Below, in pieces: positions 9,294 to 47,853 of a stretch of DNA of 64,000 bases. The position numbers and the translations under genes were made by a program. Below the pieces are notes generated by a model, which saw nothing but the letters and a program-made list of their open reading frames with translations, did no database searches and was not told the DNA's origin. Source of the DNA: Phycisphaerales bacterium (GTDB lineage: Bacteria; Planctomycetota; Phycisphaerae; Phycisphaerales; UBA1924); contig JAIEOW010000045.1 in assembly GCA_019750095.1 (NCBI GenBank), positions 1 through 64,000 on the forward strand, written 5' to 3'. Positions within the stretch are counted from its first letter, which is position 1. Each line of letters begins with the position of its first letter.

Positions 9294-9568
9294 CCTTCGG
9301 GAAGCTCGGTGCGCACCGATTGCCGATGAGCCGTCTTCCCAGCGACTTGTTGGGGTTTTCATCGGCGTTCTTGCATGTTCGGCTGGATTATCGCCCCTGA
9401 GGAAGGCGGGGTGTGGGAAGAGCGGAGAGGATGCGCGGAGTGCGCGGGCGGCGGGGCGCGAAAAGGGCCAGCGGAGGGCGCTGCGGACCTTCCGGGTGCG
9501 GTTCCGCGTGTCATGGTGATCCGCGTCGTCTCGATCCACACCCAAGACCCGCATGGGCTGGTACCTTC

Positions 9569-12352
9569 ATGGTCATGCCATCGGACACTCCTGATCCGGC
9601 TCTGGTGCTTGCCCAGCGTGCGCACGCGCTGCCGGCGGCGGAGCGGGCTGGGTTTCTTGCACGCGAGTGTCGCGGCGATGCGGTACTGGTGCGCCGGGTT
9701 GAGCGGTTGCTGGAACAGCATGATGCGAGAACCGTCGCGGGCGACGCTGGTGAACCCGTGTCGAGCACGCCCGCAACGGGCGACGAACAGCATGATCGCG
9801 TTCGCGGGCGGAAGATCGGGCGGTACACCATTCTTGATGTGCTGGGCGAGGGCGGGATGGGGACGGTGTATCTGGCGGAGCAGGACTCGCCTCGGCGGAC
9901 GGTGGCACTCAAGATGATTCGACCCGGGCTGATCACGCGGTCGTTGCTCCGGCGGTTTGAGGTGGAGTCGGGCGTGCTGGGTCGGCTGCAGCATCCGGGA
10001 ATTGCGCGGGTGTATGAAGCGGGGACAGCTCAGGTCGACGGGACGGATATTCCGTACTTTGCGATGGAGCTCGTGCGCGGGCAGACGCTGACGCAATATG
10101 CCGACACTCGCGAGCTGGACACGCGGCAGCGGCTTGCGCTTCTGGCGATGGTGTGCGACGCGGTACAGCATGCGCACACGCGCGGGGTGATTCACCGGGA
10201 TCTGAAGCCGGGGAATATTCTGGTGGAGGAGTCTGAAGAGTCCGGCGAGCGCGGGACGGCACCGATGCCCACCCGCTGGGGACCAGCGGGCCACCCAAGT
10301 GCGACGATGCTGGGGGATGCGTCGGCGTCACGGTTCGGATTGTCGGCGACACCGAAAATTCTGGACTTTGGTATCGCGCGGGTGACCGACAGCGATGTGC
10401 AGCAGGCGACGATGCAGACGGATGTGGGGCAGCTTGTGGGGACGCTGCCGTATATGAGTCCGGAGCAGGTGGCGGGGAATCCGAGTGAACTGGACACACG
10501 CTCGGATGTGTACACGCTGGGTGTGATTCTGTTTGAGCTGCTCGCCGGGCGATTGCCGCATGATGTGTCGCAGCGGACGATCCCCGAGGCGGTGCGGATC
10601 ATCGGGATCGAACCGCCGACGCGGCTGGCGTCATTGAAGCGTGAACTCCGCGGAGAGATTCAGACGATTGTCGAGAAGGCAATCGAGAAGGACAAGTCTC
10701 GACGCTATCAGTCGGCGCGTGATCTGGCCGATGACATTCGCAGGTATCTTCGCGATGAGCCGATCATGGCGCGGCCCGCGGGGACGGTGTATCGATTCAC
10801 CAAGTTTGCCAAGCGGAACAAGGGGCTGGTGGGCGGGCTGGCGGCAGCGGGTGTGATCCTTGGTCTTGGCGCGGTCGGCGTGAGTTGGCAGGCAGCGCGA
10901 GCGACGGCGGGGTGGGCCAAGGCCGAGCAGAACCTGACTTTGGCGCAGGCGGCGCAGAAGCGTGCGGAGACTGAGGCGGAGAATGCGCGGAGCGTGAGCG
11001 ATTTTCTCTCCGGGATGCTGACGAGCGTGGACCCGGAGACGGCGATCGGGCGCGAGGTGACGGCGCGGGAGTTGTTTGATGCGGCGGTGGTGAACCTGGA
11101 GTCGGGCTCGCGGCCGCCGAGTGTTGAGACGACGATCCGTGCGGCGGTGAGCCAGAGCTATCGGGGGATCGGAAAGGCGGACCTGGCGGTGCCGCATGCG
11201 CGGCGAGTGCGTGAGCTTGCGACCCGGCTGGATGGGGCGGACTCAAAGGCGGCGTATGAAGCGACTCGGAATCTGATCATCGTGCTTGCAGATGCGGGGA
11301 AGTTTGACGAAGCGGAGGAGATGGCGCGGGCCGCGCTGAAGCGTGAAACGGAACAGGCGGTGCCGGATGCGGTGCGGGTTGCGGAGGCCAAAAGCGATCT
11401 GGCGCGGGTTGCGCAGGAGATCGGCAAGGCACCGGAGAGCGTTGGGCTGCTGGAAGACGCGGTCGTGGTGCTGGCGAAGCACCGGGGCGATGAGCACTCG
11501 CAGACACTGTCGTCCCGGAACAACCTGGCGACGTGCTACAAAGCCGTGGGACGGCTGAAAGACGCGGAGAAGATGCAGCGCGAGGTGTACGAGGTGTACG
11601 CGCGGATTCACCCGGCGGAGCACCCGCTGGTGCTGAGCTCGCGGAACAACCTGGCGACGCTGCTGGAGCGGCTGGGGCAGGGGACAGAGGCCGCGGAGCT
11701 GTTTCGCCAGACGCTTGCGGCACGCGAGCGCGTGCTTGGTGCGGATCATGTGTCGACGGCGAATACGCGGCTGAACTTGGGCGTGTGTCTGGCCGGGCTG
11801 GGCAAGCCCGCAGATGCGGAGCCGTTGATCCGGGCGGCGAGCGCCGTGCTGGAGCGTCAGCTTGGGGAGGAGCATCCAAAGTCGCTCGTAGCCATGGGCA
11901 ATCTGGCGTATGTGCTGGAGGATCTGAAGCGATTGGACGAGGCGGAGACGCTGTATCGGAAGGTCGCCGAGATTCGCAAGCGCGGAGCGCGAGGCGGTGC
12001 GGACCCGGAGGTGTGGGGCGCGTTGAACAACCTGGCGATGCTGCTGATGCAGGCGGGAAAGCTGGAGGAGTCACGGGAGCAGTTCGCCGAGTTGATCGCG
12101 GCGTGCGAGAAGAGCCTGCCATCGGATCACTATGTGGTGGGCATCTTTCGGAGCAACTATGGCGAGTGCTTGACCAAGCTGGGTGAGTATGCCGCGGCGG
12201 AGGCGGCGCTGCTCAGAAGCCACACGGTTCTTGTGGACAAGCTCGGAGCGAGCCACGCACGAACGCAGAAGGTGGAATCGCGGCTGATCGCGCTGTATGG
12301 GGCGATGGGGAAGCCGGAGCTTGGGGCGAGGTATCGTTCGGGCGGGAAGTGA
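9569..12352 (+). CDS. Serine/threonine protein kinase with C-terminal TPR repeats
   Basis: Kinase motifs GEGGMGTVYLAE, ALK, HRDLKPGNILV, DFGIAR and SPEQ; a TM segment; TPR_10/12-like repeats (NNLATCY, NNLATLLERLG, LNNLAMLLMQAGK). Confidence 0.85.
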   Translation: MVMPSDTPDPALVLAQRAHALPAAERAGFLARECRGDAVLVRRVERLLEQHDARTVAGDAGEPVSSTPATGDEQHDRVRGRKIGRYTILDVLGEGGMGTVYLAEQDSPRRTVALKMIRPGLITRSLLRRFEVESGVLGRLQHPGIARVYEAGTAQVDGTDIPYFAMELVRGQTLTQYADTRELDTRQRLALLAMVCDAVQHAHTRGVIHRDLKPGNILVEESEESGERGTAPMPTRWGPAGHPSATMLGDASASRFGLSATPKILDFGIARVTDSDVQQATMQTDVGQLVGTLPYMSPEQVAGNPSELDTRSDVYTLGVILFELLAGRLPHDVSQRTIPEAVRIIGIEPPTRLASLKRELRGEIQTIVEKAIEKDKSRRYQSARDLADDIRRYLRDEPIMARPAGTVYRFTKFAKRNKGLVGGLAAAGVILGLGAVGVSWQAARATAGWAKAEQNLTLAQAAQKRAETEAENARSVSDFLSGMLTSVDPETAIGREVTARELFDAAVVNLESGSRPPSVETTIRAAVSQSYRGIGKADLAVPHARRVRELATRLDGADSKAAYEATRNLIIVLADAGKFDEAEEMARAALKRETEQAVPDAVRVAEAKSDLARVAQEIGKAPESVGLLEDAVVVLAKHRGDEHSQTLSSRNNLATCYKAVGRLKDAEKMQREVYEVYARIHPAEHPLVLSSRNNLATLLERLGQGTEAAELFRQTLAARERVLGADHVSTANTRLNLGVCLAGLGKPADAEPLIRAASAVLERQLGEEHPKSLVAMGNLAYVLEDLKRLDEAETLYRKVAEIRKRGARGGADPEVWGALNNLAMLLMQAGKLEESREQFAELIAACEKSLPSDHYVVGIFRSNYGECLTKLGEYAAAEAALLRSHTVLVDKLGASHARTQKVESRLIALYGAMGKPELGARYRSGGK

Positions 12353-16480: not shown

Positions 16481-17623
16481 GTGATTCGCGGCGTGATCGC
16501 GATGGGTGCGATGCTGGCGCTCGGCGTTGTGCTGCCGGCGTGCTCGGGCTCGCGGAGCGCGGGTGAAGCATCGAGCGTTCGAGCCCAGACGATCATCGAC
16601 GGGAAGTCGCCGCTTGGCGTGCGGCTGCCGGGCATGTCGCAGCGTTCGGCGGACTTGGGGCTGACTTTCGACGGAATGAGCGCTCTCTTCACCTGTGTTG
16701 GAGAGCCGATCGGGTGCGATCGGGGCTTCCACGACGCGCTCTTGGCGTTCAATGCCGCCGTACCGGCGGGTGAGGGGCTTCGCGTTGAGCTGCGTGTGAG
16801 TCCGGATCGTTCTGGCGAGGCGTGGTCGCCGTGGCTGACGCTGGCGACGTGGGGAGAGGGCACGCGGTTCGCCGCACCTGTGCGCAGTTTCGTGCTCCCG
16901 ACTGGGCAGGCGGGGAAGATCGACATCGACTATTTCACCGCGCCGCGGCCGCATCTGTATCACCGGCTGCAATACCGCCTGTTGGCCACCATTCCTGGAG
17001 TACGAGTCGATAGGGTTTCGGTCGCACTGGACGATGAACGTGGGTGGACTTTTCGCGACACGACTCGTGAGCCGAGCGATGCGCGTGATTCCACGGTGCC
17101 GTTCCGCACGCAGAAGACGCCGGACGCCGCACTCTCGGGGAGACTCTGCAGCCCGACCAGCGTGGCGATGGTGCTTGCGCATCACGGCGTAGAAGTGCCG
17201 GTGGCGACGGTCGCCGAGATCGCTCGCGATCCGGAGTTTGATCTGTATGGGAACTGGCCTCGCAACATTCAGGCCGCGGCGTCGCTCGGCGTGCCGGGCT
17301 TCCTCACGCGGATCAGCGATTGGTCGCAGGTGGACGCACTGTTTGATCAGGGACTGCCGATCATCGCGAGTATTCAGGTGTCCAATGGCGAGCTGCCGGA
17401 AGCACCGTATGACTCGACCGGCGGACACTTGATCGTCCTGACCGGATTCACGCCCGAGGGCGATGTGCATGTGAACGACCCCGCCTGCGGCACCGAAGCC
17501 GAGGGGCGACGGGTGTACTCGCGCAAGAATCTGACCAATGTCTGGCTGTCGCGCACCGGCGGCACGGCGTATGTGCTGCTGGGTAGAAAGGGCCAAATGG
17601 CCAATGAGCACATGGCCAAATGA
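16481..17623 (+). CDS. Peptidase C39-like (Peptidase_C39_2) lipoprotein
   Basis: Signal peptide with lipobox (LALGVVLPAC); putative catalytic Cys in CSPTSVAMVLAHHG; C-terminal GGHLIVLTGF..GDVHVNDP; a GTG start at 16481 or an ATG at 16502. Confidence 0.55.
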   Translation: MIRGVIAMGAMLALGVVLPACSGSRSAGEASSVRAQTIIDGKSPLGVRLPGMSQRSADLGLTFDGMSALFTCVGEPIGCDRGFHDALLAFNAAVPAGEGLRVELRVSPDRSGEAWSPWLTLATWGEGTRFAAPVRSFVLPTGQAGKIDIDYFTAPRPHLYHRLQYRLLATIPGVRVDRVSVALDDERGWTFRDTTREPSDARDSTVPFRTQKTPDAALSGRLCSPTSVAMVLAHHGVEVPVATVAEIARDPEFDLYGNWPRNIQAAASLGVPGFLTRISDWSQVDALFDQGLPIIASIQVSNGELPEAPYDSTGGHLIVLTGFTPEGDVHVNDPACGTEAEGRRVYSRKNLTNVWLSRTGGTAYVLLGRKGQMANEHMAK

Positions 17624-17703
17624 GAACCAGCCAGACCTGATGCACTCTTCAATCGGCGAGACCACCCTTGTGCCTTTCTGCCACTTTTTGACCATTTGCT
17701 CAT

Positions 17704-18957
17704 TTGCCATATGGTGATTTCCCCATGCCCCCCACTCGCCTTCTTTCGCTCGACGCCTTTCGCGGCATGGTCATCGTCGTCATGTTCCTGGTGAACGTGG
17801 GTGGGACGGACCCTGCGTTCTCGCTCGGACTGTGGGCGCCGAAACATGCACAGAGTTGGATGCCGCACATGGGGTGGAACGATGGGCGGATGGGCAACGG
17901 ACTCGCGGACTATGTGTTTCCGTGGTTCTTGTTCATCGTCGGTGTGGCGATTCCGTTCTCGATGGGCTCTGGGCGCGGCCAGGCGCAGGCGGCGTGGATG
18001 CGTATCGCCATGGCGTTCAAGCGCGGCTTGATCATCTATCTGCTCGGGTCGCTGCTGTGGGCGGCAAGCATCGGATACCTGCCGCGGGATGCGGCGGCAC
18101 GGTGGAACGGGCCGATTACGTCGAGCATTTTTCTGCACTGGGACATTCTGCCCCTGATCGGGTTTGGGTACTTCTTCGCGGTGCTCATGCAGCACACGCC
18201 AAGGTGGGCTCGGCTCACGTTTGTCGTGCTTGTGCTGGCGTTCAAGTTCTGCACGTTGAAGATGTTCGTGCCCGAGGGTTCGGGCACGTGGGTCGATGCG
18301 CTCGCGAACAAGACGTCGCTTCACCACACGCTGGGGTCCAAGCTCGGGCTCTCCGGGCCGTTTGGCAACTGGACGATCACCCTGATCAATCAGGGGTTCG
18401 CATTCGCATCGCTCGTCGTGCTGGGTGCGCTCTCGGGGGAGATTCTCCGGGATGAGCGTCTTGGCATGGGCAGACGAGCGGCCAGCCTTGCGGGTGCCGG
18501 CGGGATTGCCTGCGTCATCGCACTCGCGTGGTGGCTCATCAGTGACTTTCCATTCAGCAAGGACTTCGTGTCCTCGACGTACATTCTCATCACGGCCGGG
18601 AGCGCGGCGGTGCTGCTCGCGGGGTGCTTCTGGCTGGTCGACATCAAGAAGTGGACATCGCTCAGCCCGCTGCGGATTCTCGGCGTGAATGCACTGGCCG
18701 CATACTTCCTCGCCGAGTTTCTGTGGAAGACGGTGCTCATGCAGTGGCAGGTCATTCTGCCGCCCGGATTTCAGCCGCAGACCCTGGCGGCAGGGGCCAA
18801 GCCGGAATCGGCACTCGCCATCACCGCGTTCAAGGCGTGGCTGCAGCACTGGACGACGCCGACACTCGGCACGTTTCTGCTGGTGGGGCTGTACATTCTC
18901 TTTTACTGGCTCATCGCTCTGGTTCTGTATCGCAAACAGTGGTTCATCAAGGTCTGA
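17704..18957 (+). CDS. DUF5009/DUF1624 membrane acyltransferase-like protein (HGSNAT-like), copy 2
   Basis: RLLSLDAFRGMVIVVMFLVNVGG ... FPWFLFIVGVAIPFSMG; paralog of the 15235-16473 gene. Confidence 0.7.
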   Translation: MPYGDFPMPPTRLLSLDAFRGMVIVVMFLVNVGGTDPAFSLGLWAPKHAQSWMPHMGWNDGRMGNGLADYVFPWFLFIVGVAIPFSMGSGRGQAQAAWMRIAMAFKRGLIIYLLGSLLWAASIGYLPRDAAARWNGPITSSIFLHWDILPLIGFGYFFAVLMQHTPRWARLTFVVLVLAFKFCTLKMFVPEGSGTWVDALANKTSLHHTLGSKLGLSGPFGNWTITLINQGFAFASLVVLGALSGEILRDERLGMGRRAASLAGAGGIACVIALAWWLISDFPFSKDFVSSTYILITAGSAAVLLAGCFWLVDIKKWTSLSPLRILGVNALAAYFLAEFLWKTVLMQWQVILPPGFQPQTLAAGAKPESALAITAFKAWLQHWTTPTLGTFLLVGLYILFYWLIALVLYRKQWFIKV

Positions 18958-38704: not shown

Positions 38705-40219
38705 ATGCCGACCCCCTCCCGCCCCGCCCCGACCACCCGAGCCAACGCCCCCCTCACCATGCCCTTCCGCGGCGTGCTCGACATGATCGGCAACACGCCG
38801 ATGCTCGAGCTCTCCAGGCTCGACACCGGGTCTCCCGACATCCGGCTCTTCGGCAAGATGGAGCTGATGAACCCGGCGGGGTCGATCAAAGACCGCATCG
38901 GGCTCGCGATGATCGAGGCCGCCGAGCGCGACGGGCGGCTCAATCCCAACGCCACGCCCACGCCGACGATCATCGAGGCGACCGCGGGCAACACGGGCCT
39001 GGCCCTCGCGCTCGTCGGCAAGCAGCGTGGCTACCACATCAAGTTCGTCATGCCCGACAAGATGTCGCAGGAGAAGATCCAGCACCTGCGGGCGATGGGC
39101 GCCGAGGTGATCCTCACCCGCTCCGACGTCGAGAAGGGCCACCCCGAGTATTACCAGGACATGGCGGCCGCGCTTGCCAAGACCATCCCGAACTCGCTCT
39201 ACGTGAACCAGTTCGGCAACCTCGACAACCCCAAGGCGCACTACGACACCACGGGCCCGGAGATCTGGAAGCAGATGGAGCCCGTCGGCGGCATCGACGC
39301 GTTCGTCTGCGGCGTCGGCTCCGGCGGCACGCTCTCGGGCGTGGGCAAGTTCCTGCGCGAGAAGAACCCCGCGTGCAAGCTGATCCTGGCCGACCCGGCG
39401 GGCAGCATCCTCACGCCGCTGGTGAACGAGGGCAAGGTGGTCAAGCCCGGCTCGTGGCTGGTCGAGGGCATGGGCGAAGACTTTGTGCCCGACATCTGCG
39501 ATCTCAAGCTCGTCAGCGAGGCGATCGCCGTCACCGACGCCGAGGCCTTCTTCGCCGCGCGTGAACTGCTGGCCAAGGAGGGCATCCTCAGCGGCTCCAG
39601 CACCGGGTGCATTCTCTCCGCCGCGCTGACCTATTGCCGCAAGATGGCGGCCCACAAGAAGGTTGGAGGGGGGGGCCCCATGAACGTCGTCACGCTCATC
39701 TGCGACAGCGGGGCCAAGTACCTGTCCAAGATGTTCAACGACTTCTGGATGATCGACAACGGCTTCATCAAGCGGGAAAAGACCGACGACCTCCGCGACC
39801 TCATCGCCCGCCGCCACGACTTCAACGAGGACCACACCCTCCGCGAGACCGACCCGGTGCGCAACGTCATCAAGCGCATGGGCATGTACGGCGTCAGCCA
39901 GATGGTCGTGAAGGACGAGTCCGGCAAGGTCTCGGGCATCGTCGACGAGGGCGACATCCTGCTCGCGGTGAACATCGACGGCGGGGGCCGGGGGGGCGAC
40001 GAGAAACACCCGGGCGAGGGCGGCGCGTTCGACCGCCCCGTGAGCGACTTCATGACCCGCCGCCTCGAGACCATCCGCCCCGAAGCCCCGGTCAGCGCAC
40101 TCATGCCCATCTTCCGCGCCGACCGCGTCGCGATCGTCGTCGACAAGCAGGGCACGTACTTCGGGCTGATCACCAAGTTCGACATGATCAACTACCTGCG
40201 CTCGCAGCTGGTGCGGTGA
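38705..40219 (+). CDS. Cystathionine beta-synthase (PLP-dependent CysK-like domain plus a tandem CBS pair)
   Basis: GNTPMLEL, the lysine motif SIKDRIG and GNTGLALA; C-terminal CBS domains; contains G8 and G7 homopolymer tracts. Confidence 0.85.
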   Translation: MPTPSRPAPTTRANAPLTMPFRGVLDMIGNTPMLELSRLDTGSPDIRLFGKMELMNPAGSIKDRIGLAMIEAAERDGRLNPNATPTPTIIEATAGNTGLALALVGKQRGYHIKFVMPDKMSQEKIQHLRAMGAEVILTRSDVEKGHPEYYQDMAAALAKTIPNSLYVNQFGNLDNPKAHYDTTGPEIWKQMEPVGGIDAFVCGVGSGGTLSGVGKFLREKNPACKLILADPAGSILTPLVNEGKVVKPGSWLVEGMGEDFVPDICDLKLVSEAIAVTDAEAFFAARELLAKEGILSGSSTGCILSAALTYCRKMAAHKKVGGGGPMNVVTLICDSGAKYLSKMFNDFWMIDNGFIKREKTDDLRDLIARRHDFNEDHTLRETDPVRNVIKRMGMYGVSQMVVKDESGKVSGIVDEGDILLAVNIDGGGRGGDEKHPGEGGAFDRPVSDFMTRRLETIRPEAPVSALMPIFRADRVAIVVDKQGTYFGLITKFDMINYLRSQLVR

Positions 40220-40239
40220 GATTGGAACGCGAAGTTCGC

Positions 40240-41040
40240 GAAGTTCTCGAAGGAAGGCCTGAACGCGGAGACGATGCAGGAGGGGCGGAGGGACGCGGAG
40301 AGATGGCTTTGGGTTCGAGGCATTGAGGCAGGGAATCAAGGCAGGAACGCGGAGGAGATGCGGGAGGGGCGGAGGAGCGCGGAGGGATGGCGTTGGGTTT
40401 GAGGCATTGATTCAGGGGATCTAGGCATCAACGCAGAGGAGAGGCAGGAGACGCAGAGGAACGCAGAGAGATGGCCTTGGGTTTGAGGCATTGAGGCGGG
40501 GGATCGAGGCGGGAACGCGGAGGGGATGCGGGAGGGGCGGAGGAGCGCGGAGAGATGGCTTTGGGTTTGAGGCAGTGAGGCGGGGGATGAAGGCATTCAC
40601 GCAGAGGAGAGGCAGGAGACGCGGAGCAACGCAGAGAGATGGCCTTGGATTCAAGCCAAATGCATTGAAGTCATCGATTCCTTGGCTCAAACCAAAACGC
40701 CTCCCTCCGCGTCCCTCCGCCCCTCCCGTCTCGCCTCTGCGTTCCTGCCTTGAACCCAACGCCATCCCTCCGCGTCCCTCCCCCCCTCCTGCATCTCCTC
40801 CGCGTTCCCGCCTTGAACCCAACGCCATCTCTCCGCGTCCCTCCCCCCTCCTGCATCTCCTCCAAGTTCCTGCCTTGAACCCAACGCCATCCCTCCGCGT
40901 CCCTCCGCCCCTCCCGTCTCGCCTCCGCGTTCCTGCCTTGAACCCAACACCATCTCTCCGCGTCCCTCCCCCCCTCCGCGTTCCTGCCTCCCTTCGCGTC
41001 CATCGCGCCCTTCGCGTTTCCATCTCCTCCACCGTTCCAT
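40240..41040. repeat. Palindromic tandem repeat array: about 5 direct copies of an approximately 84-bp unit, then about 5 copies in reverse-complement orientation
   Basis: Units end in GATGGCNTTGGGTTTGAGGCA; the forward block is 40254-40650, the symmetry centre is about 40655-40680, and the inverted block is 40690-41040. Confidence 0.8.
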
Positions 41041-41046
41041 CCCGCA

Positions 41047-41240
41047 CAGGAACAACCGACTCGGGCCACGGAACAGCTCGCCCGGACCTTGGCACCTTTC
41101 ACTCGCGCCCAGCAACGGCTCAACCGTTCCACGCACCGGCTCGGCCGTGCCGAGGCACCGCCCACCCGTTCCGAGGCACGGCTCGATCGTCCCCTGGAAC
41201 ACCTCGACCGTTCCCAGGAACGGCTCTCCCGTTCCCGAGC
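41047..41240. repeat. Tandem array of about 8 copies of a 21-bp unit containing the inverted motif GGAAC-N7-GTTCC, immediately upstream of the 41278 gene
   Basis: Recurring ggctcNNccgttccNaggcac units, e.g. AGGAACGGCTCTCCCGTTCC. Confidence 0.7.
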
Positions 41241-41277: not shown

Positions 41278-41970
41278 ATGCCCGACTACATCCCCCGCTC
41301 CGACGCCGAGTACGCCGCGTACATGCAGCACTTTGTGCCCGCGCTGGACTATTGGTGGAGCCGGCAGGGCCTTGATCCCGGCACGCTCGACGAGCTGCTC
41401 TACGCCGCCGGCGACTTTGACGCCGCCTACGCCGCGCACATCGCGCAACAGGCCGCCGCCGAGGGCGCCCGCCACGCCAAAGACGCCGCCCGCGCCCGCC
41501 TGACCGCCGCCGTGCGGCCGCTGGTCAGCTTCGTGCAGAGCTACCCCGCAACGACCGACGCCGCGCGGGCCGAACTGGGCATCACCATCCGCCCCCCAAA
41601 GGGCACGCCCGCCCGCACGCCGTCGTCGCGCCCGCTCGCGCTGGTGGAGAGCGGGCAGCGGCTCACGCACCAACTGCGGCTGGTGGATGAGTCCACGCCG
41701 ACCCGCCGCGCCCGGCCCGCGGGCGTGCTCGGGGCCGAGGTGTGGGTGAAACTCGTCGCCCCCCCCAATGCGGACACCCCCGCGCCGACCGACCCCGCCC
41801 GTGATCCAAGTAGTTTCACGTTCCTGACCATGACCACCCGCCCGAGTTTCCGCGCCGAGTTCAAGGCGGGCGAGGGCGGAAAAACCGCCGTCTACATGGC
41901 CCGCTGGATCAACACACGCGGCGAAAAGGGGCCGTGGTCGGAGATCACGACGGCGACGGTGGCGGCGTAG
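41278..41970 (+). CDS. Hypothetical protein, paralog A of a pair flanking the RM gene
   Basis: 230 aa; shares the N-terminal M-x-DYIP, LGIT, TPTRRARPAGV and C-terminal RW..GE.GPWSE...AT.AA motifs with the 46090 gene; no family recognised. Confidence 0.5.
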   Translation: MPDYIPRSDAEYAAYMQHFVPALDYWWSRQGLDPGTLDELLYAAGDFDAAYAAHIAQQAAAEGARHAKDAARARLTAAVRPLVSFVQSYPATTDAARAELGITIRPPKGTPARTPSSRPLALVESGQRLTHQLRLVDESTPTRRARPAGVLGAEVWVKLVAPPNADTPAPTDPARDPSSFTFLTMTTRPSFRAEFKAGEGGKTAVYMARWINTRGEKGPWSEITTATVAA

Positions 41971-42030
41971 GGCATCGACACGCCGTCCGCAGGACCCGCT
42001 GCGCGGGAAAGACCGGCACCGATGTTTGTC

Positions 42031-42145
42031 GTCTTCGCCCCAACGGGGCGCAGGGATGTAGCCACGGGTGAAGCCCGCGCTTTGCGGGCGCAACCCGTGG
42101 AAAGCGTGTCCCCCGCGCGGGACTGCCCCGGAGGGGCAGAGGGGG
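42031..42145. repeat. Left inverted repeat flanking the RM gene (hairpin-containing)
   Basis: About 85% identical, in reverse complement, to 45780-45868 over about 78 bp; contains the stem CCACGGGT...ACCCGTGG. Confidence 0.7.
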
Positions 42146-42146
42146 C

Positions 42147-45100
42147 TTACTTGAGTGGGATCGTCTTCTTGGCGCAGGCGGCGTAGTTGGCGTTCAAGTC
42201 GTCGGCGAGTTCCAGCAGTGCGGCGATGCGGCGGACGATCTCCGAGACGTAGACCAACTCATCGCCGGTGAGCGGGCGACCGAGGATCGCCTTTTCCCGG
42301 TACGAAAGCCACTTGTTCACGACGGGATAACCGCCGAGCGTCAACGCCCACGCGTCATTGGGCACGTTGCGCCAACCGACGCGCTCGTTGATCCACACGT
42401 CCACCGCGCCTTCGGGATCGGCGTCGTTGGGCGTGACTTTGCCCTCGCGCATCGAGACGCGGCCCTGCTTGTCCACGCTCGCCCAACCGCCGTCCACGAT
42501 CATGTCCTCGTCCGGGTCGATCTGGCCGCCGCCGACCTTGAACGGCACCGCGAGCGAGCGGAGGGCGGCGCGAATCTTGCCCGACGTAACGCCTTCGACG
42601 GCCCGGCCCGGCATAAGCAGGTCCGCGACCAAACGGCCCAGCTTGGCGGAGGTGACGAGCGTCTTGGCTTCGGTCGGCACGGGCACGCGGGGCCAATCGA
42701 CGCGGAGGGCGTCGTGGTTCTGCTGGGCGTAGGCGGGCGCGGCGAGGGCGGCGATGCAGTGAAAGAACACCTCGTCGTTGTGGCTCAGTGCGGCATCGGT
42801 CCAGCCGTGGCCGTCCTTGGTGCGGCCCTTGACACCGTGCGCCTCGCAGATGCGTTCAAGCCACCTCTCTTCCACCCCCGGGCCGATGGATTCGCCCATG
42901 AGCGATTCGTGACGACGCCGCATCGGGAAGTAAGTCGCGTAGGGGTCGAAGAAGTAGTACGAGCCGATGTGCTCGGTGACGACTGGAATCGGGAACTCTT
43001 CGTGCCGGGGCTTCTGCGTACACGCGAGGAAAAGGTTTTCCGGGAAGGCGTTCTCGGCGAACTCGGGACGGCGGCGATGCACGAGCTTCAGCCTGTCCTC
43101 ATCAAACATGTAGCGAGTGTCGAAGGGTTGCCATGCGATAGGCACGACCTTCTTTGGATCGTACTTGAGCTTCTTGGCCTTTGCTTGGGCTCTGACGGAA
43201 GATGCCTCGTATCCCGCTTCGTCGGTCATCAAGTCGGCACAGGCTTCCGCAAGGTCCGCGTCCGACACGGACTTGTCGAAGTACGCCTTCATGCGTTCTT
43301 CCAGCGGTGCGCGGTCCATGTCCACCAGTGCCCGGCCCCGTCCCGGCTGCACGCCCTTGAACGATTCGCCGAGCAAGGCGGGCAAAGTGGGCCACACCAT
43401 CCACTGGGCCGATCGTCGGGTGGGAAGAAGCGACCAACGCCCCTCCAGCGTGGGCGCGGCCTCGCGCGGATTGCCCTCCTTGCGGTCTTTGACCGAAGCC
43501 AGAAGCCGCTCGCGGCGTTTCTCGGCGGACGCGTCGTCGAAATCGCGGAACTCGACGCGGGCCACCGTAGCGGTGCTGGCTTTCTTGTCTCCGGCTCCCT
43601 TCTTGACCATCGTGGCGATGGCGGTACCGATCCGGATACCGGGCGATGTGCCCCGCATGGCGAACACCGTCTCGCTGGCCGCGCCGTCCGGGGCACGCTC
43701 TTTGGCCTTGCGGTCGCCGTGGAGGTTGTCCACGTAGATGGTGTCGAACCCTTGGAGCAAGCGTTCGCGCATGAGGACGTGGGGGATGCCGTTGAGCCAC
43801 GAATAGTTGCTGATGTAGCACACGATGCCGCGCCGCCCCACATCGCCGATGCGCCGCTCGGCCAATCGGAAGAAGCGGATGTAGGGATCATCGAGCGTCT
43901 GCTTGCGGATGCCGAACCGCTCGTTCAGCCCTTCCTTGTACGGTCGGATCAAGTCGCCCTCTTCGTCAAGGGCCACGCCCTTGTTGCCCCGGTACGGCGG
44001 GTTGCCCAGGACCACGAGGATCGGCGCTTCCCGCTTGATCTTGGCGGCGCGGTCCTGCTCGTCTTGCAAGAACCCGAAGGCCAGCGTGCCTTTGGCCCCT
44101 TTGGGCGGCTCCCAACCCGTGAGCGCGTTGGTGAGGTAGACGCTTACCCGCTCATCCTTGCCGAGTTTGCCGCCGAGTCCGCGAAGCAGGATGCCGAGTT
44201 GCAGGTGCGCGACCACGTAGGGGGCGGTCAAAATCTCGAACCCGAAGACGCGCTCGCAGAGGGCTTTCTTCACCTTCGACACGGCGAGCGCGCCGTGCCC
44301 CTGATCGTCGAGCGTGGCGTGGATGCGGCGGGCCACTTCAAGCAGGAACGAGCCGGTACCGACGGCGGGATCAAGCACGAACACGCGGTCATCGGCCAAT
44401 CCGTCCTTGATGCCGAGTTCCGAGCGAAGCAGGTGGTCCACCCGTTCGACCATGTAGCGCACGATCTCCGGGGGCGTGTACCACACGCCCAGTTCTTCGC
44501 GGAGTTCGGGGTCGAACGCTTCAAGGAAGGGCTCGTAGAAGAGCGTGATGGCGTGGTCGGCGTCGAAAGACGCGAAGAACTCGGCGTGATTCACGCGGTT
44601 GAGGCTCGCGGCGGCCCATTCGAGCGTCTCCCGAAGGTCGAGGTCTTTGAGTCGCGTGGGCTTTGCGACTTCGTCAAAGAGGTTGGCGATCAGTGGCAAG
44701 TCCAAGTGCTCGGACGCGCGCCGCCAGTCGAACGCGGGCGGCTTCCTGCCCTTGGGCAGCCCGGCCTTCCAGAGCATCCAAGCCGAGAACAGGCCGTAGA
44801 ACAAGGTCTGGACGAGCGACGAGCGGAAAAACCGCATTCCCTGTTCGTCGGTGAAGGTCAACCCCAGCGTCCGCTCGAAGGCTTCCTGAAGGGGCTTCAA
44901 GTCGTCGATCGAGTGCCGACCGAGCCGGCGCTTGGCCTCGCGGGCGTGGCGGGCCAAGTCCGCCGCCAAGTCCTTGGGCTTGACGATGGGCGAAGGGCGA
45001 GCGAAGACGCCTTCGAGGTAGTCCGTCAGCCCCTGCTCGTGTTCCTCGGCGAGCTTGGCAGGCTTGGCCCTCCAGAAAGCCTCGGATGTCGCGCTCAGGC

Positions 45101-45500
45101 GATAGCGGGTTTCGACTTTGGCCTCGCCCGTCTCGGCATCGCGGGCGACGAACACGAACTCTCGAAAGTTGGTCACCAGCACGAAGCCGTAGCGCTTCCA
45201 ATACTTGGACACTTGGTCCCCGGAGGCGGTGTCATGAATGTTGTCCTTGGTGCCCTTGACCTCAACAACCAGCCGCAGATTCCCCGACTTCTTTTCGAAG
45301 ATGCCAAGGTCCGGCTGGCCCGCGCCCTCCTGCTTCAGCTCCATCGTCGCAAAGAGTTCCGGGTCGAAGTCCTCGCCTATTGCGGTAAGCAAGGCTTCGA
45401 GTTTGCTCTTGTAGGACTGCTCGGCCGTGGCCTTGCCGGTGCCGTGCACATCATGCAGGCCTTCTAAGTATGCAAGGACGGGTGATTTCTTCTTTGACAT
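42147..45500 (-). CDS. Type IIG (MmeI-family / Type IIL) restriction endonuclease fused to an N6-adenine DNA methyltransferase
   Basis: N-terminal PD-(D/E)xK-like region (DLGIFEKK...LVVEVKG ... FVLVTNFREF, compare MmeI YVLVCDFQRF); gamma-class methyltransferase motif I VLDPAVGTGSFLLEV and motif IV LGNPPYRGNKG; 1117 aa. Confidence 0.8.
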   Translation of the reverse strand: MSKKKSPVLAYLEGLHDVHGTGKATAEQSYKSKLEALLTAIGEDFDPELFATMELKQEGAGQPDLGIFEKKSGNLRLVVEVKGTKDNIHDTASGDQVSKYWKRYGFVLVTNFREFVFVARDAETGEAKVETRYRLSATSEAFWRAKPAKLAEEHEQGLTDYLEGVFARPSPIVKPKDLAADLARHAREAKRRLGRHSIDDLKPLQEAFERTLGLTFTDEQGMRFFRSSLVQTLFYGLFSAWMLWKAGLPKGRKPPAFDWRRASEHLDLPLIANLFDEVAKPTRLKDLDLRETLEWAAASLNRVNHAEFFASFDADHAITLFYEPFLEAFDPELREELGVWYTPPEIVRYMVERVDHLLRSELGIKDGLADDRVFVLDPAVGTGSFLLEVARRIHATLDDQGHGALAVSKVKKALCERVFGFEILTAPYVVAHLQLGILLRGLGGKLGKDERVSVYLTNALTGWEPPKGAKGTLAFGFLQDEQDRAAKIKREAPILVVLGNPPYRGNKGVALDEEGDLIRPYKEGLNERFGIRKQTLDDPYIRFFRLAERRIGDVGRRGIVCYISNYSWLNGIPHVLMRERLLQGFDTIYVDNLHGDRKAKERAPDGAASETVFAMRGTSPGIRIGTAIATMVKKGAGDKKASTATVARVEFRDFDDASAEKRRERLLASVKDRKEGNPREAAPTLEGRWSLLPTRRSAQWMVWPTLPALLGESFKGVQPGRGRALVDMDRAPLEERMKAYFDKSVSDADLAEACADLMTDEAGYEASSVRAQAKAKKLKYDPKKVVPIAWQPFDTRYMFDEDRLKLVHRRRPEFAENAFPENLFLACTQKPRHEEFPIPVVTEHIGSYYFFDPYATYFPMRRRHESLMGESIGPGVEERWLERICEAHGVKGRTKDGHGWTDAALSHNDEVFFHCIAALAAPAYAQQNHDALRVDWPRVPVPTEAKTLVTSAKLGRLVADLLMPGRAVEGVTSGKIRAALRSLAVPFKVGGGQIDPDEDMIVDGGWASVDKQGRVSMREGKVTPNDADPEGAVDVWINERVGWRNVPNDAWALTLGGYPVVNKWLSYREKAILGRPLTGDELVYVSEIVRRIAALLELADDLNANYAACAKKTIPLK

Positions 45501-45779
45501 CCTGTCTCCGAAGATTGAGGTTGGTTGGACGGCATTGTACGGTCAGTTCACCGCCAATGCCGGGGCTGCCGCCCCCGGCACCCCCGCTCAAGGCACTCGG
45601 AATGCACGACGATCGCGGCGGGCGGTTCTCTTCCGGGCAGGGAGAGGTGCGGAGAGGGCGGCACGCCCTCTCTGCATCAGCGCGACACAGTGACGGATAG
45701 GTTGGAAACCAGTCCCGGTTGAGCGGGTGTCGGTGGACGGGAGCTTCCTCCGCCCCTGCCGGGGCGGGTCGGGGTGATT

Positions 45780-45868
45780 CACGCTGTCCACGGGTTGCGC
45801 TGCGCTCCACCCGTGGCTACAGCCCGGCGCCCCTCCGGGGCGAAGAGTGAGCGGAGCGGGGCGAAGAG
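45780..45868. repeat. Right inverted repeat flanking the RM gene
   Basis: Reverse complement of 42031-42108; lies about 280 bp upstream of the RM start codon. Confidence 0.7.
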
Positions 45869-46089
45869 GCGCGGCGGTTCATCCTCATATATGTTCCGAC
45901 TCGGTGTGCTCTGTGTCTCTGTGGTGAAAATTCCTGGGGCCGGTGAAGTCGAGCATTTCTCTTGCCGACAAAACCGAAAGTGTCCTCCGCGTGCCGATTG
46001 ACGGCTTGGGTAGCGGCTTGACGCCCCAGCGCAGCGTGTGCAGGGCAGCACGAGCAAGCCGCCGAATCCATTGATGGAGACACTGAATC

Positions 46090-46749
46090 ATGGCTGACTA
46101 CATCCCCGGCCCCGATGCGTCGTTTCAGGCTTGGCAATCCAACTTTGTGACCTACGCCAACGCCAATCTCGCCGCGCTCGGGCTCACCGCGCCGGACATG
46201 GCCCCGATCACGGCCGCGCAGACCGCTTGGGCCACCGCCTTTCCGGCCCACGTCACCGCCGTCAACGCGGCCAAGGCCGCGAAACAGACCAAGGACGAGG
46301 CCCGGGCCGCGTATGTCGCGGTGATCCGGCCGCTCGTGCGCCGGCTGCAGGCGTCCGCCGTGGTGAGCGATGCAGAGAAGGCGTCGCTCGGCATCACCGT
46401 CGCGCAGGCCCCGACGCCCATCGGCGCGCCCACCACGGCCCCCATCTGCTCCATCGAGTGCGGCAACCGCCTCCAGCAGACCCTCCGCTTTGTCGACTCC
46501 GCCACGCCCACACGCAAGGCCAAGCCCGCGGGCGTCATGGGCGTCGAGATCTGGAACAAGGTCGGCACCACGCCCCCCGCTGGCGAGGCCGACCTCCGCT
46601 TCGTCGCCGTGGACACCAACGCGCCGTACGTCATGAACTTTGACTCCGCCGACGGCGGCAAGGTCAACTATGTCTGGATGCGATGGGTCAGCCCCACCGG
46701 CGAGCGCGGGCCGTGGAGCGAGCAGGCCCAGGCGACCATCGCGGCCTAA
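46090..46749 (+). CDS. Hypothetical protein, paralog B of the RM-flanking pair
   Basis: 219 aa; about 35-40% identical to the 41278 gene by manual alignment. Confidence 0.5.
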   Translation: MADYIPGPDASFQAWQSNFVTYANANLAALGLTAPDMAPITAAQTAWATAFPAHVTAVNAAKAAKQTKDEARAAYVAVIRPLVRRLQASAVVSDAEKASLGITVAQAPTPIGAPTTAPICSIECGNRLQQTLRFVDSATPTRKAKPAGVMGVEIWNKVGTTPPAGEADLRFVAVDTNAPYVMNFDSADGGKVNYVWMRWVSPTGERGPWSEQAQATIAA

Positions 46750-46834
46750 CGCCCCGATCATCGACAGCACATGCAGAACCTCCAACGGCCCCGGCACATG
46801 CTGGGGCCGTTGTGCTGCGCGACGGCAGGGGTGA

Positions 46835-47115
46835 TCGTTTCAAGGCTGGGTTTGAACGCGAACGGCGCGAAGGACTCGAAGGAAGGCAGGAACGCGAAGG
46901 GGGGGAGGGAGGTGCGGAGGAACGCGGAGGGAGGCGTGTGGGATCGAGCCAGAGAATCCCGGCCTTGAACCCAGGACCATCCCTCTGCGTTGCTCTGCGC
47001 CTCTTGTCTTTCCTCTGCGTGGATGCCTTGATCCCCCGCCTCGATGCCTCGAACCCAAGGCCATCTCTCCGCGCTTCTCCGCCCCCCTCCGCATCTCTCC
47101 GCGTTCCTGTCTTCC
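46835..47115. repeat. Second, shorter palindromic repeat array of the same 84-bp family (one forward unit, about 2 inverted units)
   Basis: GAAGGCAGGAACGCGAAGGGGGGGAGGGAGGTGCGGAGGAACGCGGAGGGAGGCG, then inverted copies CTTGAACCCAAGGCCATCTCTCCGCGC... Confidence 0.65.
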
Positions 47116-47175
47116 AAAGAGCCCATCGCGCGGTATGCTGCGGCATCGCTCGCGTCCGTCGCCCACATCAGGAGC

Positions 47176-47853
47176 ATGACCATGCCCCGCCTCGGCCCCA
47201 CCTCGCCCGCCGACCATGTTGATCAGCCCGTGCATCCGCCGCTGGACCTGGCCAAGTGGATCCGCACCAACGCCAAGCATCTCAAGCCGCCGGTGAGCAA
47301 CAAGCAGTTGTTTGTGGAGAGCGACGACATGGTCGCCTTTGTCTCCGGCGGGCCCAACACGCGCAACGACTATCACTTGAACCCGACCGAAGAGCTGTTC
47401 TATCAGCTCAAGGGGACGATCGCCGTGCGGATTCGCCCGCTCGACGGCTCGCCGCCGCGGGATGTGGTCATCAAGCAGGGCGAGCTCTTCCTGCTCCCGC
47501 GGTGGGTGCCGCACCGTCCGCAGCGCCCGGCGAACACGCTCGGGCTCATCATCGAGTTTCCGCGGCCCAAGGGCCAGCTTGACGGGCTCCGCTGGTACTG
47601 CCCCAAGTGCGACCATCTCGTCCACGAGGCGCGCTGGCGGCTGAAGAAGATCGACGAAGACCTCAAGATCATCATGGAAGCGTTCTGGGGCGGGCCCGCC
47701 AAACGCCGCACGTGCACCGCCTGCGGCCACGTGATCGAACGCGCGGGCGCGATCGAGCTCAAGGGCGGCAAGGTCAAGGCCACGGCCCGCACATCCGGCA
47801 AACCGCGCGGCGGTGCCAAGCCCGCGTCAACCCGGCCGCGCTCGCGATCCTGA
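47176..47853 (+). CDS. 3-hydroxyanthranilate 3,4-dioxygenase
   Basis: Cupin core NPTEELFYQLKG...GELFLLPRWVPHRPQR; C-terminal rubredoxin-like CPKCDH...CTACGH. Confidence 0.8.
   Translation: MTMPRLGPTSPADHVDQPVHPPLDLAKWIRTNAKHLKPPVSNKQLFVESDDMVAFVSGGPNTRNDYHLNPTEELFYQLKGTIAVRIRPLDGSPPRDVVIKQGELFLLPRWVPHRPQRPANTLGLIIEFPRPKGQLDGLRWYCPKCDHLVHEARWRLKKIDEDLKIIMEAFWGGPAKRRTCTACGHVIERAGAIELKGGKVKATARTSGKPRGGAKPASTRPRSRS

Follow-up and report, generated by a model that had tools for sequence, protein, structure and literature searches.

Palindromic modular repeats at the borders of a restriction-modification island in a Phycisphaerales chromosome: candidate joints for island gain and loss

Why does a long palindromic array of tandem repeats lie directly behind a cystathionine-beta-synthase-like (CBS) gene in a Phycisphaerales chromosome, with a second, weaker array on the far side of a neighboring restriction-modification (RM) island? 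The locus is part of a 64,000-nt stretch of one metagenome-assembled contig (the window), to which all coordinates refer unless another locus is named. We call the two repeat elements E1 (window 40223-41027) and E2 (window 46853-47125). The local order is a thioredoxin-family gene, CBS, E1, a set of 21-bp mini-palindromes, a gene for a 230-aa protein (hyp230) and a Type ISP RM gene on the opposite strand, followed by 590 bp of non-coding DNA, a gene for a 219-aa protein (hyp219), a terminator-like hairpin, E2 and the gene for 3-hydroxyanthranilate 3,4-dioxygenase (3-HAO). On our best reading, the element is a modular palindromic repeat of the BOX, REPIN or miniature inverted-repeat transposable element (MITE) kind that acts as a recombination substrate. 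We consider it probable, though well short of certain, that E1 and E2 represent a lineage-specific, non-coding repeat of this kind, in two copies that form the recombination joints of the RM island.

E1 is built from two opposed blocks of tandem units. Tandem Repeats Finder (TRF) resolved the forward block (40254-40648) into 4.7 copies of an 84-bp period with 80% matches and a score of 503. It also recovered a 168-bp higher-order period (85% matches), which arises because two unit subtypes, A and B, alternate along the forward arm. The inverted block (40696-40977) has a period of 63 bp (4.5 copies, 88% matches) and a higher-order period of 125 bp. A unit profile was built from the aligned units and used to search the whole 64 kb with nhmmer. 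It matched five forward and five inverted units within 40254-40989, with E-values from 1e-9 to 5e-21. The two blocks are linked by 30 inverted pairs, with arms of 69-87 nt that are 80-92% complementary. For two core motifs, 4 and 10 occurrences stand against none predicted from shuffled sequences. At the ends of the element, positions 40218-40270 and 40974-41026 form an inverted pair that is 79% complementary, giving E1 terminal inverted repeats of about 37-53 nt.

A preliminary description of this DNA had reported five forward units of about 84 bp in two alternating subtypes, forming a 168-bp higher-order repeat directly behind the CBS gene. TRF and the unit profile both confirm the units, the 168-bp period found by TRF confirms their alternation, and the position is equally firm, as the first base of E1 lies 3 nt past the CBS stop codon. 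The same description held the inverted units to be five in number and shorter than the forward ones, which is correct, but gave them a length of about 70 bp and a missing tail of 16 bp, which is not. Four of the inverted units are of a 63-bp form, and the tail they lack is 21 bp (GAGGCATTGAGGCGGGGGATC), while the innermost unit retains it; of the four, R4, R3 and R2 are plain tail-less units and the outermost, R1, carries a 12-nt deletion.

The forward arm is 48% G. Units are 72% purine and have no self-complementarity, and pairing occurs only between opposite arms. Each unit is composed of sub-repeats of 9-11 nt, of the CGCGGAGG/AGGC type. When the B-type units (40422-40505 and 40590-40668) are compared with the A-type units (40338-40421 and 40506-40589), the same CGG to CAG change is found in each internal sub-repeat, turning GCGGAGG into GCAGAGG four times per B-type unit. 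This pattern suggests either that a variant sub-repeat has spread by conversion or that a context-specific transition process has been at work.

Beyond the RM island, the preliminary description had pointed to a weaker array of the same family. The unit profile confirms it as E2, with one forward and two inverted units between 46883 and 47112; the profile has no match in the 64 kb other than those in E1 and E2. The right lead of E2 is degenerate.

Related strains show what the site looks like without the island. The nearest relative in GTDB (L001) has a CBS protein that is 93% identical in amino acid sequence (about 83% in DNA), and synteny with the window stops at 40221, near the CBS stop codon. 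This nearest GTDB species has neither an array nor adjacent CBS and 3-HAO genes, and comparison with it was therefore of little use. Closer relatives are represented by the Logan assemblies L093, L098 and L099. In L093, whose flanks are about 98% identical to the window, the order is thioredoxin, CBS, a 432-bp spacer and 3-HAO, with no island. The spacer consists of a lead, three forward units, an E1-type centre, one inverted unit and the right flank of E2, and the strain is identical to the window over 40506-40727, a segment that spans the palindrome axis. In L098 and L099, two independent assemblies with flanks 90-94% identical to the window, the order is again thioredoxin, CBS, a spacer (333 bp) and 3-HAO, and the island is again absent. 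Their spacer holds an E2-type element made up of a lead, a single forward unit, a centre of the E2 type (c2) and two inverted units. The L098 element aligns to window 46847-47777 at 94% identity, so that E2, from its first unit onward, is orthologous to the single element of L098; the first ~30 nt of the L098 lead resemble the lead of E1 and not that of E2. 3-HAO thus adjoins CBS in the empty-site strains. This adjacency is found only in strains that carry an element, with no orthologous element-free site among them, and in all three strain types the element begins 3 nt after the CBS stop codon. The preliminary description had remarked that two arrays bracket the RM island; as the sister strains carry only one element here and lack the island, that bracketing is meaningful.

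The number of units per arm changes independently and quickly between strains, from one to five. It is five forward and five inverted in E1, one forward and two inverted in E2 and in L098/L099, and three forward and one inverted in L093. Expansion is independent in the two arms, one of which grows by 84-bp units and the other by tail-less 63-bp units, and each arm has a higher-order repeat of its own. That both arms of E1 contain five units, which had given the array a symmetrical appearance, is therefore incidental, as the unequal counts in the sister strains also indicate. All variants follow a common plan. A lead at one end is followed by 84-bp tandem units in variable number and by a loop; beyond the loop come inverted units, again in variable number and either 84 bp long or tail-less and 63 bp long, and the element closes with an inverted lead.

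E1 and E2 differ from each other more than the strains do. Their outer units are only about 78% identical, whereas the flanks of the compared strains are 93-98% identical. E1 is thus not a fresh duplicate of E2 and derives from a separate, older member of the family. Judged from these sequences, the repeat family probably occupies, or once occupied, two or more loci in the gene pool.

The suggestion that the whole structure could form a very long hairpin is borne out by folding predictions. The minimum free energy (MFE) predicted for E1 as RNA is -580 kcal/mol, compared with -359 +/- 9 kcal/mol for shuffled sequences (z = -25). Against shuffles, the corresponding values are -155 kcal/mol (z = -6) for E2, -174 kcal/mol (z = -9.3) for the L098 element and -219 kcal/mol (z = -11.7) for the L093 element. 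In every variant, the outermost forward unit and the lead are predicted to pair with the outermost inverted unit. The two strands fold with about equal stability, which points to a palindrome at the DNA level rather than a strand-specific RNA. Selection for a strand-specific RNA through G-U pairs was considered and rejected, as these pairs show no consistent strand bias. The element would be expected to form a long hairpin as single-stranded DNA or as RNA transcribed from either strand. The forward unit of L098 shares a 26-nt core (GCGGAGAGCGGCAGAGAGGGGCGGAG), without a mismatch, with the outer inverted unit read in reverse complement, and this core differs from both arms of the orthologous E2 in the window. 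This may be a sign of arm-to-arm conversion (concerted evolution) or of selection for pairing. Only three canonical G-quadruplex motifs were found, all of them in the inverted arm. Long local inverted repeats are very rare in this clade: across 1.5 Mb of Phycisphaerales loci they were confined to these elements and two other places.

The arrays are non-coding. G+C content at third codon positions (GC3) is 0.58-0.69 in every frame of the array, compared with 0.90-0.95 in the neighboring genes, and all frames of the forward arm contain stop codons, so that the earlier judgment that there is no credible coding frame holds. The translated open reading frame (ORF) of the array has no homologue among 5.8 billion proteins. 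A coding sequence was rejected on these three grounds, although the periods of 84, 63 and 21 are all multiples of three. The view that the array is not a CRISPR (clustered regularly interspaced short palindromic repeats) locus also stands: the units are contiguous with no spacers between them, half are forward and half inverted, and no cas-like domains are encoded by the neighbors. Searches against Rfam returned no gathering-level match in the window. The sub-threshold matches, to microRNA-precursor models of plants and animals (42 bits against a gathering score of 168), correspond to a generic long hairpin, and a known structured RNA was rejected.

Further copies of the family were sought with a degenerate 22-mer from the unit core, which had no match in GTDB representative genomes or in IMG/VR. 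Two matches in JGI metagenomes lie inside unrelated coding sequence and were dismissed as chance. There was no blastn match to the array among plasmids and phages. Neither 80 Phycisphaerales CBS loci nor the cassette loci described below contained a match to the unit profile, and no further unit copies are present in the additional same-species sequence of loci L091-L093 and L098. Within what was covered, namely the window, the same-species loci and the public collections searched, there is no sign that the 84-bp unit is a genome-wide satellite, a concern that the preliminary description had raised. By their sequence, E1 and E2 appear to represent a family that is confined to one Phycisphaerales lineage and is new at the sequence level.

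How could the same site be occupied in one strain and empty in its relatives? In the window strain, a segment of ~6.6 kb is bordered on the left and on the right by copies of the element that are both chimeric. It contains most of E1, the 21-bp mini-repeats, hyp230, the Type ISP RM gene, hyp219, the terminator and a lead of the incoming type. Alignment of the lead-ins places the first ~30 nt of the E1 lead with the chromosomal lead of L098, and the lead of E2 is of the divergent, incoming type. We propose, as the most parsimonious course of events, that the ancestor had one E2-type element between CBS and 3-HAO, and that the window lineage gained the ~6.6 kb when this resident element recombined with a diverged element of the same family on donor DNA. 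The crossover would have taken place inside the lead segment, near CGAAGGAAGGC, leaving E1 with the resident lead and the incoming body and E2 with the incoming lead and the resident body. Campbell-type integration of a circle and a double crossover would both fit. In the L093 lineage the island would later have been deleted when an inverted unit of E1 recombined with the outer inverted unit of E2; this junction lies in CTCCGCGTTCC, and the inverted units would also have undergone another rearrangement. We favor homology-driven recombination over a site-specific reaction at a fixed core, since the junctions of integration and deletion fall at different positions in the element. The recombination was probably aided by the fragility of a long palindrome that can form hairpins or cruciforms. 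In Escherichia coli, the hairpins extruded by long palindromes are cleaved by SbcCD; by analogy, the palindrome may itself provoke breaks that stimulate recombination.

Several points weigh against this account. The donor element is postulated from one genomic site of the family. The crossover is placed in the lead from a stretch of about 35 nt in which few positions are diagnostic. At the L093 junction, R5-inner sequence, R4-like outer sequence and E2 flank form a mosaic that would take at least two events, or a different progenitor array, to produce. An identity of ~78% would be a poor substrate for RecA-type recombination, and a dedicated recombinase is possible. Finally, the count of five plus five units in E1 comes from a single metagenome-assembled genome (MAG).

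The alternative that survives best, possible but in our judgment doubtful, is by analogy with other repeats that the main role of the element is transcriptional: a 3' hairpin behind CBS would terminate or insulate transcription or protect the mRNA end, and its position at the island border would be incidental. The constant start immediately behind the CBS stop in all three strain types agrees with this, and at its other end the element is closely followed by a TATGCT-containing stretch, located before 3-HAO and shared with another species; the nearest species, however, has no such element after CBS. A strong outer stem is kept in all variants whatever the unit number, and the arms of the L098 element are nearly perfectly complementary, but folding is equal on both strands and an array of 800 nt far exceeds what termination needs. 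Nor is there a U-tract or a terminator-like match, the latter in a scan with consensus promoters and terminators that was uninformative. Comparable roles have been proposed for BOX, REP and ERIC elements (PMC3049150). A function in termination, insulation or 3'-end protection is possible, though not needed to account for the data, and would not exclude one in recombination; we rate it lower than recombination because of the missing U-tract.

It is unlikely that the element is a dedicated attachment site of the hairpin type, comparable to integron attC or the folded attP of CTX phage, used by a circular cassette and a putative recombinase. In such a scheme the 21-bp array, hyp230, the cargo and hyp219 would form the cassette and move as a circle. 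The chimeric leads do resemble attL and attR, and the empty site looks precise, yet the L093 deletion junction lies elsewhere in the element than the integration junction, as expected for homology and not for a fixed core. A cassette with variable cargo is indeed found in many Phycisphaerales genomes and in different contexts, and its circular form would place the incoming element between the 3' end of the cassette and the 5' repeat array; but no element of the E family lies beside the cassette in any other genome examined. There is no integrase or transposase in the island or the window, and hyp219 models only as a helical hairpin with an FN3-like domain. A broader version, which we hold to be just as improbable, would make the E elements the hairpin attachment sites of an undescribed Phycisphaerales platform for cassette exchange, integron-like and with no known integrase. 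If it were true, the operator-like 21-bp array, a hyp230-family gene, variable conflict or defence cargo (RM, Fic, SUKH immunity and others) and a highly conserved hyp219-family gene would travel together as circles.

A protein-binding platform of phased G-rich sub-repeats, centromere-like or nucleoid-organizing, seems very improbable. The sub-repeats of 9-11 nt would suit it, and the two opposed blocks resemble plasmid centromeres with their iterated sites, but no partition or DNA-binding gene is nearby, the unit number varies from one to five between near-identical strains, and the family is absent from related species. Least probable of all is an assembly artefact, a chimeric palindrome or collapsed repeats in a MAG, for although palindromic tandem repeats are difficult to assemble from metagenomes, the arms have units of unequal length (84 against 63 bp) and imperfect complementarity, unlike perfect fold-backs, the segment across the axis is identical in an independent assembly from another sample (L093), and L098 and L099 independently agree on a palindromic E2-type element. 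On the question of mis-assembly raised in the preliminary description, the centre of the palindrome is thus well supported and the full unit count of E1 belongs to one assembly; L100, a Logan contig that contains the RM gene, has a different context and gives no confirmation of the right end of E1.

E1 and E2 belong to a known kind of element but have an unusual architecture. The BOX elements of pneumococcus, boxA-(boxB)n-boxC, have pairing terminal modules and variable internal tandem modules, vary in length between strains and are predicted to form a stem-loop (PMC3049150). E1 likewise has mutually complementary terminal modules, its leads (79%), and internal tandem units whose number varies between strains. 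There is no sequence relation, however. Two opposed blocks pair with each other here, whereas boxB is one direct array outside the stem, and BOX elements exceed 100 copies per genome, compared with one known locus and units of 63-84 bp in the present case. By analogy, the element probably works most like BOX elements, without being a member of the BOX or REPIN families. REPINs are extragenic, hairpin-forming inverted copies (PMC3116915, PMC3337134). E1 and E2 share with the REP, BIME and REPIN elements an extragenic location just behind stop codons, a hairpin formed by inverted unit copies and restriction to a lineage. They differ in that their unit is 63-84 nt long and not itself palindromic, as against an imperfect palindrome of ~20-40 nt, and in that the units form tandem blocks rather than singlets or alternating doublets. 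REPs are dispersed in tens to hundreds of copies per genome; the copies of the E family known from the 64 kb and the further same-species loci are those at this site, two of them adjacent in the window. Within the window, tblastn found no Y1_Tnp/RAYT homologue.

Pairs of MITEs are able to bracket and mobilize cassettes, as in integron mobilization units and MITE-flanked integrons. The present locus also has two small, non-autonomous inverted-repeat elements bracketing a cargo that is present or absent between strains, and E1 has terminal inverted repeats. Unlike in a MITE pair, one flanking copy is orthologous to a resident element, the joints are chimeric, and no target-site duplication (no direct duplication is evident at the ends of E1) or transposase is seen, which argues for recombination between elements and not for composite transposition. 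An integron attC site or gene cassette was also considered. It was rejected because no integrase domain is encoded in the island or its neighbors, the leads lack the GTTRRRY core, and other cassettes have no E elements; inspection of the leads by eye revealed no dif/Xer-like or integron-like core. Long chromosomal palindromes are fragile, recombinogenic sites. E1 resembles them as an interrupted palindrome with arms of several hundred bp, fast structural change and recombination mapped inside the element, but its hairpin should extrude less readily, as the arms match imperfectly (80-92%) and do not share a register (84 against 63 bp). The MIRU-type variable-number tandem repeats of mycobacteria are direct arrays only and have been proposed to be translated or translationally coupled. 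They share with E1 intergenic tandem units of 50-100 bp, size classes produced by block deletion (84 against 63 bp), periods that are multiples of three and copy-number differences between strains; the E1 arrays differ in being palindromic, in containing stop codons and in lacking a codon signal.

Table 1. Coordinates of the repeat elements, the island genes and the chromosomal flanks in the window
Feature	Position	Strand	Remarks
Cystathionine-beta-synthase-like gene (PALP + CBS domains)	38705-40219	+	Pfam; left chromosomal flank
E1 lead-in	40223-40258	+	three degenerate CGCGAAG sub-repeats; lead-in alignment
E1 forward arm, five 84-bp units	40254-40668	+	F1 40254, F2 40338, F3 40422, F4 40506, F5 40590
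E1 centre (hairpin loop)	40655-40682		axis near 40668/40669; loop is the degenerate 21-bp tail of F5
E1 inverted arm	40669-40989	-	R5 40669-40751 (tail kept), R4 40752-40814, R3 40815-40876, R2 40877-40939, R1 40940-40989
E1 lead-out	40990-41027	-	inverted copy of lead-in; 53-nt pair, 79% complementary
21-bp mini-palindrome array, about nine, GGAACGG-N5-CCGTTCC type	41049-41237	+	upstream of hyp230; TRF 41108-41236, 6.1 copies
hyp230, 230-aa gene, first of island	41278-41970	+	GC3 0.90
Type ISP restriction-modification enzyme (N6_Mtase + Type_ISP_C), island cargo	42147-45500	-	Pfam
hyp219, 219-aa gene, last of island	46090-46749	+	predicted long helical hairpin + FN3-like domain
Terminator-like hairpin after hyp219	46781-46810	+	sequence
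E2	46853-47125		lead-in 46853-46887 (incoming type), forward unit 46883-46960, centre c2, inverted units 46948-47029 (B) and 47031-47112 (A)
3-hydroxyanthranilate 3,4-dioxygenase (3-HAO) gene	47182-47853	+	Pfam; exact protein MBY0311383.1; right chromosomal flank

The cargo between the two elements (Table 1) has relatives of its own. In L088 (GCA_016716165.1), an RM gene of 87.6% nucleotide identity lies between a hyp219 and a hyp230-family gene in another chromosomal context. By blastn, the homology to L088 extends from window 41285 to 46813, so that E1 and E2 fall immediately beyond the limits of the cassette. The RM gene is 87.6-89.5% identical in nucleotide sequence to the copies at L088 10001-13357 and L100 1116-4604, which have different neighbors; the L100 copy is split into ORFs of 218 and 896 aa. 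The Type ISP RM cargo thus appears, from these sequences, to move horizontally. The arrangement of a hyp230-family gene, variable cargo and a hyp219-family gene recurs in Phycisphaerales (L083, L084-L087, L088-L090, L101-L105), with Fic as cargo in L087, SUKH/SMI1 and a Y1 transposase in L083, and GRDP-like and TauD genes in L084. The cassette may be a hotspot or vehicle for conflict and defence genes. As the cassettes in the other genomes examined carry no E element, the element belongs to the chromosome of this species and to the particular donor rather than being a general part of the cassette. In L083 (8351-9635), inverted repeats of ~130 nt flank a gene for a 150-aa Y1_Tnp protein (IS200/IS605- or RAYT-like) inside the cassette. 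L088 has an unrelated 84-bp tandem repeat at 9512-9695 (2.2 copies, 88% matches), which is non-coding and lies between hyp219 and the RM gene.

The genes hyp230 and hyp219 are paralogs with 36% identity. There are 562 homologues of hyp230, mostly in Phycisphaerales. hyp219 is unusually conserved, at 77-94% amino acid identity between species in which CBS identity is 65-93%, and a stretch of 6 kb can contain two copies. It has no match in Pfam, PHROG or NCBIfam, and structure prediction, used in search of a recombinase fold, returned only the helical hairpin and the FN3-like fold.

The 21-bp mini-palindromes belong to the island and not to the 84-bp family. Between 4 and 10 of them stand in tandem upstream of every hyp230-family gene examined (for example, L083 6190-6280, L087 2493-2668, L088 15473-15671 and L101 6543-6660). 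The half-site varies by species (CTCCGG/CCGGAG, GTCGCG-type, GTCCA/TGGAC) and the period of 21 bp is constant. By its sequence, the array resembles an operator or a binding array under co-evolution, or a set of small hairpins in the 5' leader. Upstream of hyp219 (~45975-46075) lies a conserved non-coding motif consisting of GTGYCCNCCGCGTGCCGATYGACGGCTYGGGTAGCGG, a variable stretch of 26-47 nt and GCRAGCCGCCGAATCCA, which is found in the same position in L083, L084, L087, L088 and L101-L103. A 7-bp helix in it (CGGCTYG/CRAGCCG) is kept in all eight sequences, with one compensatory pair (U-A in five, C-G in three). The motif has no match in Rfam and is a candidate cis-regulatory RNA or promoter element.

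The window as a whole is ordinary chromosome. Exact protein matches assign it to an uncultured MAG named 'Phycisphaerales bacterium' (proteins MBY0311377-97, locus tags K2W85_048xx-049xx). Its genes include, by Pfam, those for ribosomal protein S1, FtsW, MurG and glycosidases, and no transposase, integrase or tRNA gene was found in the 64 kb. GC skew is strongly positive (+0.25 to +0.35) across the first ~6 kb and still positive until ~19 kb; the cumulative skew reverses near 19-20 kb and again near 55-56 kb, possibly reflecting gene orientation or a replication-related switch. TRF also detected short 8-bp tandem repeats (AAATGGCC and TTTGCCA types) at 17587-17710, upstream of and overlapping the start of the ORF at 17692-18957.

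E1 and E2 thus represent a new sequence family of unusual architecture within a known kind of element. Opposed tandem blocks between inverted leads are a new architecture among the modular repeats of bacteria, and to our knowledge such elements are essentially undescribed in this phylum. Assemblies of MAGs from these organisms may break or mislead at such loci. If the two copies are indeed recombination joints, the locus is a natural example of a small palindromic repeat serving as both the landing and the take-off site of a defence island. The three related strains would then represent the resident site, the occupied site with its chimeric joints and the scar left after loss, a history that can be read from the sequence. 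More intriguing still may be a by-product of this analysis: the widespread Phycisphaerales cassette of hyp230, variable cargo and hyp219, with its 21-bp arrays and conserved upstream motif, may serve defence genes quite generally as a hotspot or vehicle.

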